The notes beneath the pieces were generated by a model. It did not search any database. It was not told the DNA's origin and worked only from the letters and a program-made list of their open reading frames with translations. 64,000 bases of DNA from Escherichia coli (GTDB lineage: Bacteria; Pseudomonadota; Gammaproteobacteria; Enterobacterales; Enterobacteriaceae), in NCBI RefSeq assembly GCF_041886205.1, contig NZ_CP169030.1; one strand, given 5' to 3'. The position numbers and the translations under genes are program-made. Of this stretch, positions 28,741 through 38,673 are shown piece by piece (positions within the stretch are counted from its first letter, which is position 1; every line of letters begins with the position of its first letter).

Positions 28741-30710
<1,970 letters not shown>

Positions 30711-30821
30711 GTTGATGTCCTTTCTGGTGTGGGAACCTTAAGGAAACAACATGTTGGGTGGAGCGGACAATCCAAATGGTGAATTACCGTCTTATATCAC
30801 TGGCGCTAACAGATCTGTAAT

Positions 30822-33004
30822 ATGAAGATACTGAGGCAGCTGTGGAACCAGAAAGGGCTTGATGCGGCAGTTGAAGATGTACCTGAGGATCGATACGGTT
30901 TCGGTAATATCGCAGAAAATATATCCCGTTCCATCCTTACTCTTCCTCTGGAGGCTTCAAATGTTGTCGGAATAGAAGGTGCATGGGGATCGGGTAAAAC
31001 AAGCCTCCTTAATCTGATCCTGAGAAACCTTGCCCTGAAAAAAGATGCTCACACGCATGTGCTGCATATTTCTCCCTGGCTGAGTGGTGGCAGTCCGGTT
31101 GAAGCGCTCTTTCTTCCGGTTGCCACGGTTATCCAGCAGGAAATGGAAATACGCTATCCCCCGAAGGGCTTCAAAAAGCTCTGGCGTAAATATCTGTTGT
31201 CACCGGAAGCTCAAAAAGTGATTGAGTATGCTCAGGATACTTCATCGCGCGTCCTTCCACTGGTTCAATATATCGGACAGTTTTCCAGCATTATTAACTG
31301 GATAGCAGGCGGAATAAAGGTATTTTCAGACAGCCGTCTGGCTGTTGATCAGAAAACCACGACAAAGCTTCGGGCTGAAATTGCAGGACAACTGGTGAGT
31401 CTGGATCTGAAGTTCATTGTTGTCATGGATGATCTGGACCGACTGGAGCCATCCCAGGTGGCGGAAGTGTTCAGGCTTGTGCGTGCAGTAGCCGATCTGC
31501 CCCGCTTTACCCATATTCTCTGTTATGACAGGCAGATTATCACTCATGCCGTTGAACATGCGCTGAATATCGAAGATGGCAGCCGTTATCTCCAGAAAAT
31601 CATTCAGCTTAGTTTTAAATTACCCCGACCTGAAGCCTTTGATTTACGTAATGAATTTCGCCAGCGGGCTGAGGCTCTATATCAGCAAATTAATAATCAA
31701 CCGCCAGACTCTGGAATGGTAAGGGATCTCATCGCGGTGACTGATACCTATGGTGCCGCACTTTCGACGCCACGGGAAATCCATCAGGCCATTAATTCCC
31801 TGATTTGTGCCTGCTTCAGCTTATACGGGTGACAAACCCGGCTCTGTATGACTGGACAGAGCATTACCTGACAGAACGGTCCGTGATTGAAACCGGTCAG
31901 GGTATGCTTTCTGACGGAGAGAAAGCAGACTTCCGGGAGGGGCTTATCAGATGTATGAAGACGTTCAGGGCATCAAATGCAGACTCGTTTCTGACACTTG
32001 CAGACTGGATCCCAGGTATCAGTGGACATAATGATGAATATCTGAATCTTTTTGAGCCCGTCAGTGAGGATTTTCGTCATATCCAGACGACCGGTAAACG
32101 ACTCAGCAGCCTGACGCACTGGCGATATTATTTTGCCTTCTCCTCACCACAGAATGTTCTGCCACCTGAATTCTTCAGACAGCTTTTTGAACAGGCTGGC
32201 GTATCGGAAAAACAGCAGCAGCTTTCTGAATTGCTGCTCTCAAAAATCAACAGTGTGGGCAGTCTGTCCGGAACCTGGTTTGAACATATACTGAGCAGAC
32301 TGACTCCAGGCCTGATAAGAGAACGTAATTTCGAAGAGTGCGCAGGACTGGTTCATTTTTTCTTCGATCACACCGATGAGGTGAGCACTCGCTTCAGTAT
32401 CCGTAACCCATGGTTTTCCCTGCGTGAAATGGCCATTAATGAGGTTGTACGGCATCTGCTGAAGCATATGCAGGATATTGATGAGACCAGAACGATCACG
32501 CTTATGGAAAAACTGATCGTTACGGGTGCTTCGCCGTTCTGGATAGCCGATTTTATGCGGGATCTTATCTGGGAACATGGACTTGCTCAGAATGCAGTAC
32601 CTTCGCCTTCAGACGCTCTTTTCAGTCGCGATATTACGGAACGGTTGCGTGACAGGTTTGCGGAACGTATGAATCAACCAGAACTTCAGCAACAGCTTCT
32701 CCTGCGCAAGTCTCTTCTCGGGTATCTCTACGCCTGGAGAGACATGAGTTCAGGTGAAACCGTGAAGCAATGGGTCAGAGAAGTTACTACCACTGATGAA
32801 GGCCTTGTTAACCTGTTGATACGATTACAGACCAGTGTCTTCAGCTCCCACCGAGGGGCATATCGCCGGATTGCGCGTGACCAGGTCAGTCCGTTCTTTG
32901 ATGACTGGCCAGCAGTCGAAGAGAAGTTGAAGGTTATGCTGTCCGGCAACGAGCTGACTCCGGAGCAGGAAGCGCTCAAAACAGCGCTGGAAAATGACGA
33001 CTGA
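30822..33004 (+). pseudogene. KAP-family P-loop NTPase, split by a frameshift near 31805-31832 (about 730 aa if repaired)
   Basis: Walker A GAWGSGKTS, Walker B FIVVMDDLDR and PREIHQAINSL motif in ORF 30822-31832; continuation in the next frame at 31805-33004; IS21 ends 10 bp upstream of the ATG. Confidence 0.6.
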
Positions 33005-33013
33005 CCAAAAATT

Positions 33014-33036
33014 AAGGCCGCTTAGCGGCCTTTTTC
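33014..33036. terminator. bidirectional terminator hairpin between convergent genes (AAGGCCGC-TTA-GCGGCCTT then T-run)
   Basis: Read directly. Confidence 0.5.
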
Positions 33037-33053: not shown

Positions 33054-33953
33054 TCAGGCGCTTAATGCTTTATCCTTGTCAAAAGGAACACCGGCATACG
33101 CAAGCTCACTCAGCAGTTTGCGTTTCCATCCACCATGCTCATCAAGCTCGGTATAGAGAACCCCGGCAAGATCTGAAGGGATTTCGATATCTCCCTTCCT
33201 GAGTACAAGTACTTTCCCGCGTCCAAGCTTCCCGGCGAAATATCCGAGCTCATACAGGACATTCTGGCGTGCGCGGAGACGTGTGCTTTCAGATGCCAGA
33301 GCACTGCCGCTATCGTCGGGCGTCATCAGCACGATGGCAAAACTGACATCCCCTGACTCTGCTTCAAATTTCTCGATAATCGTCCTGGAGCCGTCAGGAC
33401 GTTCTGAAAGAATGATTTCCTCAAGACCTATCCGGGATATAAAACGGGCAACAGACTGAAGGGCATCATTATCATGGCCATGAACAATAAAAATTTTTCG
33501 GGAAACCGGCCGAAACACTGCAGGCTCAGGATCGTGTTGGTTTTCCACATACAACTGGTAATCGCGCACGAACGGGGCAACTAATGACGACGTGAATTTT
33601 CGAATGGATTCAATAATGTTTCGATCATAGAAAAATGTATGACAGAAATTAAAGGAAAAATTGTTATCGTCTGCCATTTTCTCGATCAGCAGCAACTTCA
33701 GGCCCAAAATATCAGCGGGCTCATCAGGCCACTGTAGAACAGCGGAACCAGCCATGCTGGATTCAGTATCTTCACTCCTGGCCAGAAAGGTATCAAGTTC
33801 AACATTGCGGGTCAGATGTGCATTAACTGACTGCAGATTCTCTGAGTTCAAGAGCCGGGCCAATTGCTTAAGAGGTTGCTGATAGTTCTGAACGTCAGCG
33901 CGCTGAAGGTCGAATACGCAATTTTTAAGTGACTGAAAGATATCAATTGCCAT
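33054..33953 (-). CDS. protein with C-terminal TIR-like (COG4271-type) domain and unknown N-terminal domain
   Basis: 299 aa; C-terminal KIFIVHGHD ... AIVLMTPDD ... RARQNVLYELGYFAGKLGRGKVLVL matches recalled hallmarks of the TIR-like domain found in CBASS/Pycsar-type effectors. Confidence 0.5.
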   Translation of the reverse strand: MAIDIFQSLKNCVFDLQRADVQNYQQPLKQLARLLNSENLQSVNAHLTRNVELDTFLARSEDTESSMAGSAVLQWPDEPADILGLKLLLIEKMADDNNFSFNFCHTFFYDRNIIESIRKFTSSLVAPFVRDYQLYVENQHDPEPAVFRPVSRKIFIVHGHDNDALQSVARFISRIGLEEIILSERPDGSRTIIEKFEAESGDVSFAIVLMTPDDSGSALASESTRLRARQNVLYELGYFAGKLGRGKVLVLRKGDIEIPSDLAGVLYTELDEHGGWKRKLLSELAYAGVPFDKDKALSA

Positions 33954-34233
33954 CCTGCCCGCTCTCCTGTCTTTGTTGTTCTGCTCTGTCCAGAATCTGT
34001 TGGCGCAGATTTTCTTTCATGTGTTCGATTAATGGGCTGACCATCGGATTAGTGGCATAACCAGAAGCGCGTTCGTACACCATGGAATAGGCTTCCTGAA
34101 TCGCGTTCTCAATGCTGACAGGATCGTTAGCATCGAAGTGGACATCATAACTTCCGTTTAATGCCTCTGTTGCTCTCTCAACCTCTTTTAGCTGTTTCTG
34201 CATTTTGTCTAAACCTGTGATTTTGACGCTCAT
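33943..34233 (-). CDS. small hypothetical protein (96 aa), translationally coupled to the TIR-like gene
   Basis: Stop overlaps downstream start by 11 nt; helical, charged; no recognisable domain. Confidence 0.4.
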   Translation of the reverse strand: MSVKITGLDKMQKQLKEVERATEALNGSYDVHFDANDPVSIENAIQEAYSMVYERASGYATNPMVSPLIEHMKENLRQQILDRAEQQRQESGQDGN

Positions 34234-34380
34234 AACAACCTCCGGACTAAGTGAGATGTATCAACCTTTATAGATAGCACGTTGGAGATGTGGGGTAAGG
34301 GATATCACTCAAATTCCATGTAATTTCATTAAGATCAGACTTAACCTTTTTTCGGATCTCAGATAAAAAAGAAAGAAATA

Positions 34381-34511
34381 GAGATATGCTAAACATATGC
34401 CTGGCATCTACATATGCTACCGCTATACATATGCCACACATCTGCCTATACTAAACATATGCACACACCCGGTGCTTTGAATATTCCGGATATGTTTCAC
34501 ATATCCATATG
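34381..34511 (+). promoter_or_regulatory. array of five or more direct ACATATGC-type repeats upstream of vapB (putative operator)
   Basis: ACATATGC at 34392, 34409, 34426, 34454 plus variants AGATATGC (34381) and CCATATGC (34504); read directly. Confidence 0.4.
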
Positions 34512-34528
34512 CTCGGGAGAGAAAAAAC

Positions 34529-34759
34529 ATGAGAACCGTATCGATATTTAAAAATGGCAACAACCGCGCCATCCGTCTGCCTCGTGATCTGGATTTTGAG
34601 GGGGTGAGCGAGCTCGAGATCGTCCGGGAAGGGGACAGCATCATCCTGCGCCCCGTCCGGCCAACCTGGGGATCATTCCTAGAGTACGAAAAAGCCGATC
34701 CAGATTTTATGGCGGAGCGCGAGGATGTTGTCAGCGACGAAGGGCGATTTAACCTGTGA
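34529..34759 (+). CDS. vapB: VapB-type antitoxin (AbrB/SpoVT fold)
   Basis: 76 aa; overlaps vapC start by 4 nt; resembles VagC/VapB of enterobacterial plasmids by recall. Confidence 0.8.
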   Translation: MRTVSIFKNGNNRAIRLPRDLDFEGVSELEIVREGDSIILRPVRPTWGSFLEYEKADPDFMAEREDVVSDEGRFNL

Positions 34760-35172
34760 ACAAGACTTATATGCTTGATACCTGTATCTGCTCGTTCATC
34801 ATGCGTGAACAGCCAGAAGCCGTCCTGAAGCGTCTGGAGCAGGCGGTGCTACGCGGCCACCGTATAGTGGTCTCGGCCATCACCTACTCTGAAATGCGCT
34901 TCGGGGCTACCGGCCCAAAGGCCTCACCACGTCACGTCCAACTGGTCGATGAATTCTGCGCCCGCCTCGATGCCATCCTGCCCTGGGATCGCGCCGCAGT
35001 AGACGCCACCACGAAGATTAAAGTGGCACTGCGGCTGGCCGGGACGCCGATCGGCCCGAACGACACGGCGATTGCCGGGCACGCCATCGCCGCCGGGGCG
35101 ATACTGGTAACGAATAATACAAGAGAATTTGAGCGAGTGCCTGACCTGGTGCTGGAAGACTGGGTGAAGTAA
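34756..35172 (+). CDS. vapC: VapC PIN-domain toxin
   Basis: 138 aa; N-terminal MLDTCI with acidic Asp typical of PIN domains. Confidence 0.8.
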   Translation: MNKTYMLDTCICSFIMREQPEAVLKRLEQAVLRGHRIVVSAITYSEMRFGATGPKASPRHVQLVDEFCARLDAILPWDRAAVDATTKIKVALRLAGTPIGPNDTAIAGHAIAAGAILVTNNTREFERVPDLVLEDWVK

Positions 35173-35333: not shown

Positions 35334-37472
35334 TCAAGCGATACGGGCAACCGAGCTCTGGTTTGCTGCCGGTGGCAGGGCGATGAGCTTGTCACATTCC
35401 ATAATCACGTACTCCGGGATGAGATCGAATCTGGACGGATCTAGTTGACAGATGAACTCATTTTCAATGTGGTACGTTTCGTTAACGAATTTTCGTATTA
35501 CCGGATGGTCCTGATCCAGTTCCAGTAAACGGAATACCTGCAGTTTTTCATAGCCGTTACGACAGCGACGGTACAGGTTTTTTATTTCATCTGGGCTGCT
35601 GACGAGAGCCTGAAGTCGCGGGTAATCAAAACTGTCCACATACTCCCGGATATCCCGCAAGGCCTGCTGAATTTTCTCAGGAGCCATTTTGGGATAGCCC
35701 GAGCCCGCAGCGGCAGGCTCGCGATAATCCAGCGGGACGACGCGTCGATGGAATAGATTGGATAGAAGCTGATAAGCATCACCACGTTCGTCAACGATTT
35801 CAAAGTAGCGACGAAGATAGATGAGCTTAATGATCTCCTCACAGTCTGCTGACGCGGTGATGGATTTGCAGATCTGCATGAATGTCATGATATCGCCGTC
35901 GTTAACAGGTAATTCTTCTATGACTCCAGCAGACAGGCGCAGGCAGGAGGCGGTCACCTGATTACTGAACAACCTTCTGACTGACTTCAGCGTGTCAATC
36001 ACAGGCTCCACGTCATGCGTCAGCATAAGTACAGTCCGGTTCTTCAGGCATTCACCACTTGCACGTCTGAACAGCATTTCAAGAATGGCAAACTTCTTGT
36101 TTTTATCAAAAGAAGATATGGGATCATCAAGGATAATCAGTCCCGGGTTTTTTGACAGGCATTCATACATGAATAACACAATCGCAAAGGCGTTCCGTTC
36201 TCCATAGCTGAGATGCTGGCTACCGCCGCTGACGTACCCGTCAAAATCTATGTGTCGTAGCCTGAGTTTTCTCTGCTCTCCCTCGCCGGCTATATCCACC
36301 CTGTATTTATAGCCTGCATAAGTGAGGAAATTATTGATGTTTGTTTTGTGCTGTGCGATCAGCCGGATCATGCTGTCCCGGTGCCGGTTAATTTTTCCCT
36401 GCAGCGGTCCGGCAAGGTTTATCAGGTCCATAAGGGCCGCGTTCAGTCTGTCGGTGATCCCCTGCATGAGTTCGGATTGCAGATCAGGGAAGAACTGCAG
36501 GTCAATCAACCTGGCAGTGAGCACCTCCCGAACGTTCTGCTGTTCCTGCAGGCTGAAAACATTCAGGCCTCTCAGCGCAGTGAGTTTCTCTGTCAGCGTA
36601 TCGGTCTGGCGTTTCAACGCCACTAGGTACTCGATATGTTCGGCTTCCGGACCGTTCTGAAGCATAGTAATGGCCAGAAGGCGTTCTCTGGCGCTCTCCG
36701 TCAGGTAATTACCGAGGTTTTCCACCAGTCTGATGATAGCGGTCAGGTTTTTAATGGTGGATTTATCGTATTCCTCTCTGACTTGGCGAATTTGTGCTTC
36801 CTTTCCCGTGATATCACCGGTACAGAACGGACAGCAGCCATCCGAAAGGGGCGAAAACTCGAGTCCCTTTGTCTGCCAGTCAATCCATTCCACGCGGCGT
36901 TCACTGCGGATGTAGGGTTGATAGTTCTCAAGACCAGCCGGAATGTGGTGTATTTTATTTCCGCCTGACAGACCTCTCATGCCGGTTGAAGAACGTGAAA
37001 TCCCGGAACTGGTTGATCTGAAAGCATTACTGAGTTCCTGTAGATGGTCTATCAGAGAGTTCAGCTCAGTGTGATCCGTGAAAACAGCCCGGATCTTTTG
37101 CGTCATTTCTTCTATTTCACGCTCTCTTTCCGCATGGGCTTGATTGCGGATAAGAATATTAAAGCTATCACTGATGAGCTCGTCCGGTTGGAACGTAAAC
37201 TGACTGACGTACTCCTCGTTGAAGCACATCACGTCCCCAATCCCGTCAGCACCGATGACAATGGGCCCGGTGCTATCGGGGTTTTCTCCGCGCAGCCGGA
37301 AGGGTATCAGTGCCTGTAGTCCCTGAATGTCGTCCCGCGCCGCACAGCTTATGGCCCGTGACAGCGTACTTTTTCCAGTACCATTTGGCGCAAACTTAAT
37401 GTTCAGTTTATCGGCAGTGAGGGTGATATGTGCTCGTACGATGTTATTGCAGTGGCGTATTTCAATGTCCAT
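35334..37472 (-). CDS. RloC/Rad50-like ABC ATPase with CxxC motif in the inter-lobe insert and an uncharacterised C-terminal domain
   Basis: 712 aa; Walker A APNGTGKST near N-terminus; CCPFCTG about residue 213; signature-like LSYGERN, Walker B LIILDDPISSFD and H-loop LTHD about residues 415-480; roughly 230 aa beyond the ATPase. Confidence 0.55.
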   Translation of the reverse strand: MDIEIRHCNNIVRAHITLTADKLNIKFAPNGTGKSTLSRAISCAARDDIQGLQALIPFRLRGENPDSTGPIVIGADGIGDVMCFNEEYVSQFTFQPDELISDSFNILIRNQAHAEREREIEEMTQKIRAVFTDHTELNSLIDHLQELSNAFRSTSSGISRSSTGMRGLSGGNKIHHIPAGLENYQPYIRSERRVEWIDWQTKGLEFSPLSDGCCPFCTGDITGKEAQIRQVREEYDKSTIKNLTAIIRLVENLGNYLTESARERLLAITMLQNGPEAEHIEYLVALKRQTDTLTEKLTALRGLNVFSLQEQQNVREVLTARLIDLQFFPDLQSELMQGITDRLNAALMDLINLAGPLQGKINRHRDSMIRLIAQHKTNINNFLTYAGYKYRVDIAGEGEQRKLRLRHIDFDGYVSGGSQHLSYGERNAFAIVLFMYECLSKNPGLIILDDPISSFDKNKKFAILEMLFRRASGECLKNRTVLMLTHDVEPVIDTLKSVRRLFSNQVTASCLRLSAGVIEELPVNDGDIMTFMQICKSITASADCEEIIKLIYLRRYFEIVDERGDAYQLLSNLFHRRVVPLDYREPAAAGSGYPKMAPEKIQQALRDIREYVDSFDYPRLQALVSSPDEIKNLYRRCRNGYEKLQVFRLLELDQDHPVIRKFVNETYHIENEFICQLDPSRFDLIPEYVIMECDKLIALPPAANQSSVARIA

Positions 37473-37825: not shown

Positions 37826-38083
37826 ATGGATCAGGAAATGACGTTTTCACTCAGCTATGAACAACTGACCCGGTTTGCGGAACGACGCATCCGGGAATGC
37901 AATCTGGACAGCCAGGGCGCGATTTATCTCTGCGAGTCAGCCAAAGCCGGAGCCGTGCTGATCTTCTGGCATGAACTGGCCATAAATGGCTATGCCTCAA
38001 TGAATGCCATAAAGAGACAGGAGCTCATTGACGCCGACTTTCAGCGCCTCAGAAAGCTCATCTGGCCGGAGGATGACAGGTAA
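37826..38083 (+). CDS. hypothetical protein (85 aa)
   Basis: ORF; stop overlaps next start. Confidence 0.35.
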   Translation: MDQEMTFSLSYEQLTRFAERRIRECNLDSQGAIYLCESAKAGAVLIFWHELAINGYASMNAIKRQELIDADFQRLRKLIWPEDDR

Positions 38084-38673
38084 TGACCCAGAGCCGCCGA
38101 CCGTCGCCACTGCAGCGGAGAGTGCTGATTGTGCTGGCTGCCCTTGATGAAAAACGGCCAGGACCCGTGCTGACGCGGGACATAGAACGGGTGCTGGAGC
38201 GAAGCGGGGAAGCCCCGGTCTACGGGCCAAACCTGCGCGCCTCCTGCCGTCGTCTGGAGGATGCCGGCTGGCTGCGTACCCTGCGCGCTCCGAACCTGCA
38301 GCTGGCAGTGGAGCTGACGGACGCCGGCCGGGCCGTGGCACAGCCTCTGCTGCTGGCAGAACAGGACCGCCTCCGGGCAGAACAGCGTGCGGCAGAAGTC
38401 GTCGTACTGCCGCTGGTCCCGGCAGCAGGTCTGCACGCAGACGGCACTTCTGCCACTGATCTGGCGGTGGAGCTGAACGGCATAACGTATCAGGCCTGCC
38501 GTGGGGATTTTGTGGTGCGTCTCGACGGCAGCACCTGTCTGCAGTTATGGAATAAAGAAGGCAGAGTGGTACGCCGGGAGGGCGATCCGCTGGAAGTGGC
38601 GCAGTGGCTGCAGGCCTGTCATGATGCCGGAATAGAAGTTCGTGTACAGGTTAATGAAAGCGTCACTCCGTAA
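38083..38673 (+). CDS. hypothetical protein with N-terminal winged-helix-like segment (196 aa)
   Basis: ORF in GC-rich plasmid backbone; domain guess only. Confidence 0.35.
   Translation: MTQSRRPSPLQRRVLIVLAALDEKRPGPVLTRDIERVLERSGEAPVYGPNLRASCRRLEDAGWLRTLRAPNLQLAVELTDAGRAVAQPLLLAEQDRLRAEQRAAEVVVLPLVPAAGLHADGTSATDLAVELNGITYQACRGDFVVRLDGSTCLQLWNKEGRVVRREGDPLEVAQWLQACHDAGIEVRVQVNESVTP

Follow-up and report, generated by a model that had tools for sequence, protein, structure and literature searches.

What does a small plasmid-borne operon do that couples a protein of 96 amino acids (aa), YuaX, to a 299-aa protein ending in a TIR-like domain? The operon lies on a 64,000-nucleotide (nt) stretch of Escherichia coli contig NZ_CP169030.1 (assembly GCF_041886205.1), referred to here as the window. 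An earlier note, made from the sequence alone, had proposed the two genes as a candidate uncharacterised defence module. Our preferred answer, to which we assign a probability a little above even, is that the two genes make up an abortive-infection (toxin-antitoxin-like) module which is autonomous and horizontally mobile. The type of effector is familiar. In the literature searched, no description appeared of its control module, of the small protein that is the obligate partner, of the occurrence in both split and fused form or of the swapping of effectors.

Domain composition of the 299-aa protein

The 299-aa protein is identical to WP_000963206.1 of plasmid F and consists of an all-helical N-terminal domain (N-domain) and a C-terminal TIR-like domain (Table 1). 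The latter had been recognised in the earlier note as being of the Cap12/Pycsar type, and this assignment holds: the match to PF10137 is complete, the top structural matches are Cap12 TIR domains, and the quoted motifs RKIFIVHGHD (residues 153-161), FAIVLMTPDD (205-214) and RARQNVLYELGYF (227-239) are all present. Matches of the family profile to solved structures include Cap12 (9lmq, 7un8) and PycTIR (8jsj). R229 and N231 are located shortly upstream of the predicted catalytic glutamate E235 in the motif RARQNVLYELG, and all three residues are unchanged in 32 of 32 homologs (48-90% identity). Given an inferred 8-residue SEQRES offset, they align to R78, N80 and E84 of SfSTING. In the active SfSTING filament, R78, N80 and the catalytic E84 are part of the nicotinamide adenine dinucleotide (NAD) site, which is complete only upon filament packing (PMC9402430). 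The TIR-like domain is predicted to be an NAD+ glycohydrolase effector. The N-domain had no Pfam match and no fold relative in profile and fold searches, and a profile search of a set of 5.8 billion proteins returned only fragments.

YuaX and its association with the N-domain

A large protein database carries the precomputed Pfam label PF27363 'YuaX' on the 96-aa protein and on all its close and distant homologs. No significant PADLOC, NCBIfam or Pfam-A match was obtained for the protein; the Pfam-A copy used lacks PF27363. Weak similarities to DUF3801 (E = 0.012) and to a PHROG small terminase (E = 2.8e-4 across 40 residues) were not credible and were discarded. YuaX is acidic (isoelectric point 4.8) and was modelled by AlphaFold2 (AF2) as a three-helix protein (helices 6-25, 38-59 and 65-90, predicted local distance difference test of about 90-95). 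It is predicted to be a regulatory or sensor subunit.

A scan of one genome per species with the family profile gave 80 loci, with homologous pairs in about 60 species. A YuaX homolog was encoded immediately upstream in all but one of about 61 loci whose match includes the N-domain (E = 1e-20 to 1e-51) and was absent in 20 of 20 loci where the same TIR-like domain has a different N-terminus; YuaX therefore tracks the N-domain and not the TIR-like domain. The yuaX stop codon overlaps or adjoins the start codon of the partner gene; in about 55 loci the junction measured between -2 and +14 nt. Four of the scanned loci and further database proteins are single-open-reading-frame (ORF) YuaX-N-domain-TIR fusions of about 405 aa with a short linker, found in Bradyrhizobium, Rhodobiaceae, Rhabdaerophilum and other lineages. 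The sole N-domain-TIR locus that lacks YuaX (L058, 4961-5897) belongs to the fused clade and resembles a fusion truncated at its 5' end, with an unrelated gene directly beside it, and has probably decayed.

For structure prediction, YuaX and the 299-aa protein of the window were directly concatenated, mimicking the natural fusions. The predicted template modelling score (pTM) was 0.81 for YuaX plus N-domain, despite a disordered linker, as compared with 0.57 for the whole chain. The model suggests that YuaX packs on the N-domain and that the TIR-like domain is loosely tethered; a contact of YuaX with the N-domain is suggested by the natural fusions, too.

Exchange of the C-terminal domain

A YuaX profile run against 1.84 billion representative proteins delineated a compact family of 519 clusters. 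Some of its long members retain YuaX and the N-domain and carry another domain in place of the TIR-like domain. P0228 and P0251, which are 48% identical over their full length, end in two predicted transmembrane helices, and P0294 and P0337 share a conserved unknown C-terminal domain of about 120 aa. P0314 ends in PF09509 (Hypoth_Ymh, E = 1.5e-32; RNPKAH motif), which we take to be a HEPN-type RNase family; its gene is complete and located beside an integrase and ParAB. In the truncated P0324, a canonical TIR_2 domain is joined directly to YuaX. With Foldseek, further uncharacterised proteins (267-393 aa) containing the N-domain were recovered, and in several cases the organism encodes a YuaX-like protein (about 95 aa) as well. 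Conflict systems are usually built in this way, with killing domains exchanged on an unchanging module, and the TIR-like domain therefore occupies an effector and not a signalling position.

The architecture might be as described and the TIR-like domain nevertheless not deplete NAD+, acting instead on another N-glycosidic substrate (a nucleotide, nucleoside or modified base) or synthesising a signal. We regard this as improbable. It would accord with the low scores of the NCBIfam Cap12 models, which reached 42 and 36 bits where the cut-off is 450 and matched the TIR segment alone, so that the domain represents a distinct clade; in SDIC1 of Serratia, likewise a two-gene TIR system, NAD+ did not drop significantly (bioRxiv 10.1101/2024.01.28.577318). 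It accords less well with the conservation of R, N and E, the residues that position NAD+ in SfSTING, and with NADases being the nearest relatives in sequence and structure. Were the domain to signal, an effector acting after it would be required, and no such gene was conserved among 34 loci. Moreover, the domain shares its slot with the membrane and HEPN killers of the sister proteins.

Operon structure and selection

The earlier note had described a translationally coupled two-gene operon closed by a bidirectional terminator, and both elements were found. In the ORF coordinates the two genes overlap by 11 nt (33943-33953), and the terminator hairpin has T-runs on both strands and is common to the gene of the 299-aa protein and the convergent pifA (Table 1). 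The Shine-Dalgarno sequence of yuaX does not change among the alleles of E. coli, F, Erwinia and Klebsiella. Further upstream, the element TGCTATCTATAA is a putative extended -10 promoter element whose TG.TATC.ATA positions are identical in four diverged upstream regions; a simple sigma-70 scan did not report it. Compared with the 81%-identical Klebsiella allele, the ratio of non-synonymous to synonymous substitution rates (dN/dS) was 0.074 for each of the two genes, which indicates purifying selection on both and marks them as real coding genes. Per-domain dN/dS values disagreed with the whole-gene value and were set aside.

An inverted repeat 5' of yuaX (34332-34360), which reads GATCCG-N14-CGGATC in relatives and is present as an imperfect copy in the window, is kept in the alleles of E. 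coli, F, Erwinia and Klebsiella and could be either an operator or a terminator lying upstream.

Table 1. Coordinates of the operon, its parts and the surrounding features in the window
Feature	Position	Strand	Description
yuaX	33943-34233	minus	96 aa; ATG start; ORF listing
Gene for 299-aa protein	33054-33953	minus	N-domain and TIR-like domain; ATG start; ORF listing
N-domain	33504-33953	minus	Residues 1-150; all-helical, seven helices
TIR-like domain	33141-33497	minus	Residues 153-271; Cap12/Pycsar type; complete Pfam PF10137, E = 7.9e-37
Codon for E235	33249-33251	minus	Predicted catalytic glutamate
Shine-Dalgarno sequence	34239-34243	minus	GGAGG, 5 nt 5' of the yuaX ATG; read from the sequence
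Putative extended -10 promoter element	34268-34279	minus	TGCTATCTATAA; inferred
Bidirectional intrinsic terminator	33014-33032	both	8-bp stem with 6 GC pairs; T-runs on either side
pifA	30811-33004		KAP NTPase (phage T7 exclusion); pseudogene, ORFs 30822-31832 and 31805-33004
IS21-family element	28741-30710	minus	istA (390 aa), istB (266 aa); abuts the truncated pif region
vapBC	34529-35172		
ABC-type ATPase gene	35334-37472	minus	712 aa; PADLOC candidate PDC-S06, full length, E = 8.5e-286
Two overlapping hypothetical genes	37826-38673	plus	85 aa (WP_000343085) and 196 aa (WP_000194575)

Plasmid distribution and alleles

The TIR-like protein is encoded without any change on plasmid F (NC_002483), where the YuaX upstream is 94% identical and the pair is again convergent with pifA; the locus is part of the IncF leading or maintenance region. 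The pair is present on 985 of 72,556 PLSDB plasmids (about 1.4%), about 600 of which are from Klebsiella and carry a diverged but intact allele. Together with its immediate flanks it was found at a coverage of at least 80% in 251 of 5,426 complete E. coli genomes, nearly always on a plasmid. Compared with plasmid F, 33 of 34 nt differences are located in yuaX and its upstream region (window 33943-34320; L009, plasmid F, 41130-41506). The yuaX genes differ by nine synonymous and six non-synonymous codon changes, and the 900-nt TIR gene by one synonymous change. This crowding of differences indicates a recombination breakpoint at the gene junction. On another E. coli IncF plasmid (NZ_CP024144.1; L097, 3233-4256), IS26 has deleted the TIR-like gene, and most of yuaX persists next to vapBC.

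Several of these observations also fit a classical type II toxin-antitoxin (TA) addiction system, in which YuaX would be the labile antitoxin of a TIR-like toxin and the main role would be post-segregational killing and stabilisation of F-type plasmids. We consider this unlikely, yet it is the foremost of the rival explanations. The small upstream gene overlaps the larger downstream one, as is characteristic of coupled TA genes; the pair is situated among ccdAB and vapBC on IncF plasmids and is spread over the PLSDB plasmids counted above. The IS26 deletion, a single example, kept yuaX and lost the toxin gene, and truncated effector copies are common in the protein clusters, although these truncation counts are possibly contig-end artefacts and were set aside as a test of effector-first decay. 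Most type II antitoxins carry a DNA-binding fold. The acidic YuaX has no such recognisable fold in Pfam-A and fold searches. Stable covalent fusions of YuaX to its partner fit poorly with a degradable antitoxin, and many copies are chromosomal or prophage-borne and lie in defence islands.

Gene neighbourhood

The neighbours named in the earlier note, a KAP NTPase, vapBC and an RloC-like ATPase, are all present, with two refinements: the KAP NTPase is a PifA pseudogene, and the ATPase is the PADLOC candidate PDC-S06. The two ORFs of the pseudogene result from the loss of 43 nt between short repeats near 31792-31806. Since homology to intact F-type loci begins only at 30811, pifC is missing; it was probably removed by the IS21-family element. 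The 712-aa ATPase is also weakly similar to LmuB and PrrC and is a candidate for another uncharacterised defence system on the same plasmid island. The 85-aa and 196-aa genes beyond it are kept on IncF plasmids and had no PADLOC or NCBIfam match. Just 5' of vapB (34529), an array of direct and inverted repeats containing ACATATGC (34379-34513) is possibly the VapB operator region.

The adjacency to pifA could mean that the pair is an accessory of the Pif system of plasmid F (phage T7 exclusion) and works with the KAP NTPase PifA. The convergent arrangement and the common terminator are indeed kept in the E. coli F-type, Erwinia and 81%-identical Klebsiella plasmid alleles. However, no PifA homolog adjoins the pair in about 55 other species, PifA adjacency being limited to enterobacterial plasmids, and in the window the pair is intact although pifA is a pseudogene and pifC has gone, probably to the IS21-family element. 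In addition, pifA alone was reported as the T7-excluding gene of F (Schmitt et al. 1991, as related by a citing paper). Of all explanations considered, a Pif accessory is the one to which we give the least credence.

No cyclase or known partner lies near the pair in the window, as had been stated in the earlier note, nor was one present in about 60 related loci. Among 34 diverse loci, no neighbour family recurred and no third gene was conserved. Of the 20 nearest neighbours scanned, six strongly match PADLOC models. One of the six is a regulator with a WYL domain; the others are defence proteins already known, namely two methyltransferases (restriction-modification types I and III), GajA, AbiEii and a Mokosh-like helicase. 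On an Agrobacterium element the pair is located beside a Gabija-like pair, and a Pseudomonas defence island with the pair also encodes Hxs radical-SAM genes, a TIR protein, an AAA_13 ATPase, an SNF2 helicase and Abi_C. Two loci are in prophages, one of them adjoining the integrase. In two Marinobacterium species (L033, 6008-6901; L049, 6004-6897), a WYL-domain protein is encoded about 70 nt 3' of the pair on the same strand, perhaps as a regulator particular to that lineage.

Roughly two thirds of the neighbours sampled carry no annotation for defence, and no phenotype of the pair is on record. This would be compatible with a role outside of conflict, i.e. a housekeeping or regulatory module of mobile elements that hitch-hikes in variable regions. 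We judge such a role very unlikely: a module that stays constant while its C-terminus changes between TIR-like, transmembrane and HEPN-type domains bears the signature of a toxin or immunity system, and the catalytic residues are strictly conserved.

Proposed mode of action

We propose for the abortive-infection module that YuaX, with its three helices, and the seven-helix N-domain would form one helical control module gating a toxic C-terminal effector, here a TIR-like domain that most likely hydrolyses NAD+. In the uninfected cell this module would hold the TIR-like domains apart, and the oligomer completing a Cap12-type active site would not be formed. The restraint would be lifted by a cue, most likely a phage protein or a change brought about by infection, which YuaX and the N-domain would sense directly; the alternative cue is the loss of YuaX. 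The ensuing TIR-TIR assembly would deplete NAD+, stop growth and block the spread of the phage. On plasmids, the same mechanism could also penalise plasmid loss. We infer NADase activity, toxicity and the nature of the trigger from the comparisons given here, and likewise the part of YuaX, be it inhibitor or co-sensor.

Several points weigh against this proposal. Further fold relatives of the TIR-like domain are nucleotide and nucleoside N-glycosidases (MilB, deoxyribosyltransferases), and the substrate therefore need not be NAD+. The AF2 support for a contact between YuaX and the N-domain is the pTM alone, which is indirect evidence. Known defence genes make up only about one third of the sampled neighbours. 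In sequenced isolate phages the full-length gene was not found, the TIR-like domain being present there with unrelated N-termini only. The literature searched is silent on toxicity, NADase activity and phage defence of the pair and, to our knowledge, PifA-dependent exclusion is the only one known from decades of work with phages on F-bearing E. coli.

A bolder version of the proposal is that YuaX and the N-domain are an unrecognised module for direct sensing or guarding against infection, which defines a new multi-effector defence family, split or fused in form and armed with TIR-like, two-transmembrane-helix, HEPN-type and other killers, and that F carries a second anti-phage system beside pifA. 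We offer this tentatively, at somewhat less than an even chance. If true, an overlooked system of this kind would also be present on roughly 600 Klebsiella virulence and resistance plasmids, and if the module senses phage proteins directly, it would represent a compact new sensor-effector design. Since it occurs on plasmid F and on about 1.4% of the plasmids catalogued, large Klebsiella plasmids among them, the pair could affect phage therapy and plasmid ecology.

Comparison with known systems

The closest match in PADLOC is the candidate system PDC-S35 (PDLC05005, E = 2.3e-65, residues 145-295 of the 299-aa protein), and the locus would be flagged by PADLOC on this account. PDC-S35 is a single-gene candidate that rests mainly on the TIR-like half and does not comprise YuaX, the N-domain, the fusions or the alternative effectors. 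PDC systems are 145 explicitly untested candidates (bioRxiv 10.1101/2024.01.29.577857). The earlier note had contrasted its proposal with membership in a described family; a search with hidden Markov models now provides such a membership in name only, PDC systems being declared candidates. The designation as a candidate uncharacterised defence module stands because PDC-S35 is itself an untested, single-gene candidate that ignores the 96-aa partner.

With Cap12 and PycTIR the effector shares the PF10137 domain and the conserved residues of the NAD site, and by analogy both would be expected to act via oligomerisation and to abort infection through NAD+ loss. Cap12 and PycTIR have their own cyclic-nucleotide sensor (STING, SAVED or a cNMP-binding domain) and an adjacent cyclase, whereas the pair has a helical N-domain and YuaX and no cyclase. 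Of the features that define Cap12, PF10137 is present, and a fused STING or SAVED sensor, a curated full-length match and an adjacent CD-NTase are all lacking. The PADLOC match to PycTIR is likewise restricted to the TIR segment (residues 189-271, E = 1e-9), and the cNMP-binding domain and nearby pyrimidine cyclase that define Pycsar were not found. Neither ThsA nor ThsB of Thoeris was matched in PADLOC, and the partner is a 96-aa helical protein; in further difference from Thoeris, the TIR-like domain of the pair occupies an effector slot in which it is exchangeable with transmembrane and HEPN-type domains.

SDIC1 of Serratia is a functional analogue and, like the pair, a two-gene TIR system from Enterobacterales; its TIR protein is both toxic and defensive, and the partner dampens toxicity, giving immunity at the population level. 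In SDIC1A (323 aa) the TIR domain is N-terminal and occupies residues 1-103 (bioRxiv 10.1101/2024.01.28.577318). By its description, SDIC1 differs in the reversed domain order, and also in a ubiquitin-conjugating-like partner encoded 3' of the TIR gene; PADLOC does not detect it. Wang et al. 2024 (PMC11350192) assayed TIR clusters of E. coli, 32 in all; 12 were defensive, and five of the 12 were new two-gene systems. They describe TIR-I to TIR-IX as one- or two-gene operons under native promoters that cause abortive infection and sense phage structural proteins, and TIR-V together with TIR-IX as having superimposable C-terminal TIR domains on differing N-termini, as is the case in the PDC-S35 family. 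That survey covered chromosomal DNA only, whereas the pair is overwhelmingly plasmid-borne; its clusters may include the pair.

CapRel(SJ46) resembles the pair in that a toxic enzymatic domain is restrained by a module, attached covalently or non-covalently, that possibly senses a phage protein directly, with split and fused forms. The two are unrelated in sequence and fold, the toxin of CapRel(SJ46) being a tRNA pyrophosphokinase, and direct sensing of phage by YuaX and the N-domain is a hypothesis. RES-Xre and MbcTA also combine a small upstream neutraliser with a downstream NAD+-destroying toxin on mobile elements, but their toxin folds are unrelated (RES; ART-like phosphorylase) and their antitoxins have DNA-binding or other known folds. 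Abortive infection by TIR effectors is thus well known, and the pair stands out from it by the absence of a signal-generating enzyme and by a control module without known fold relative that is reused with at least four different killing domains.
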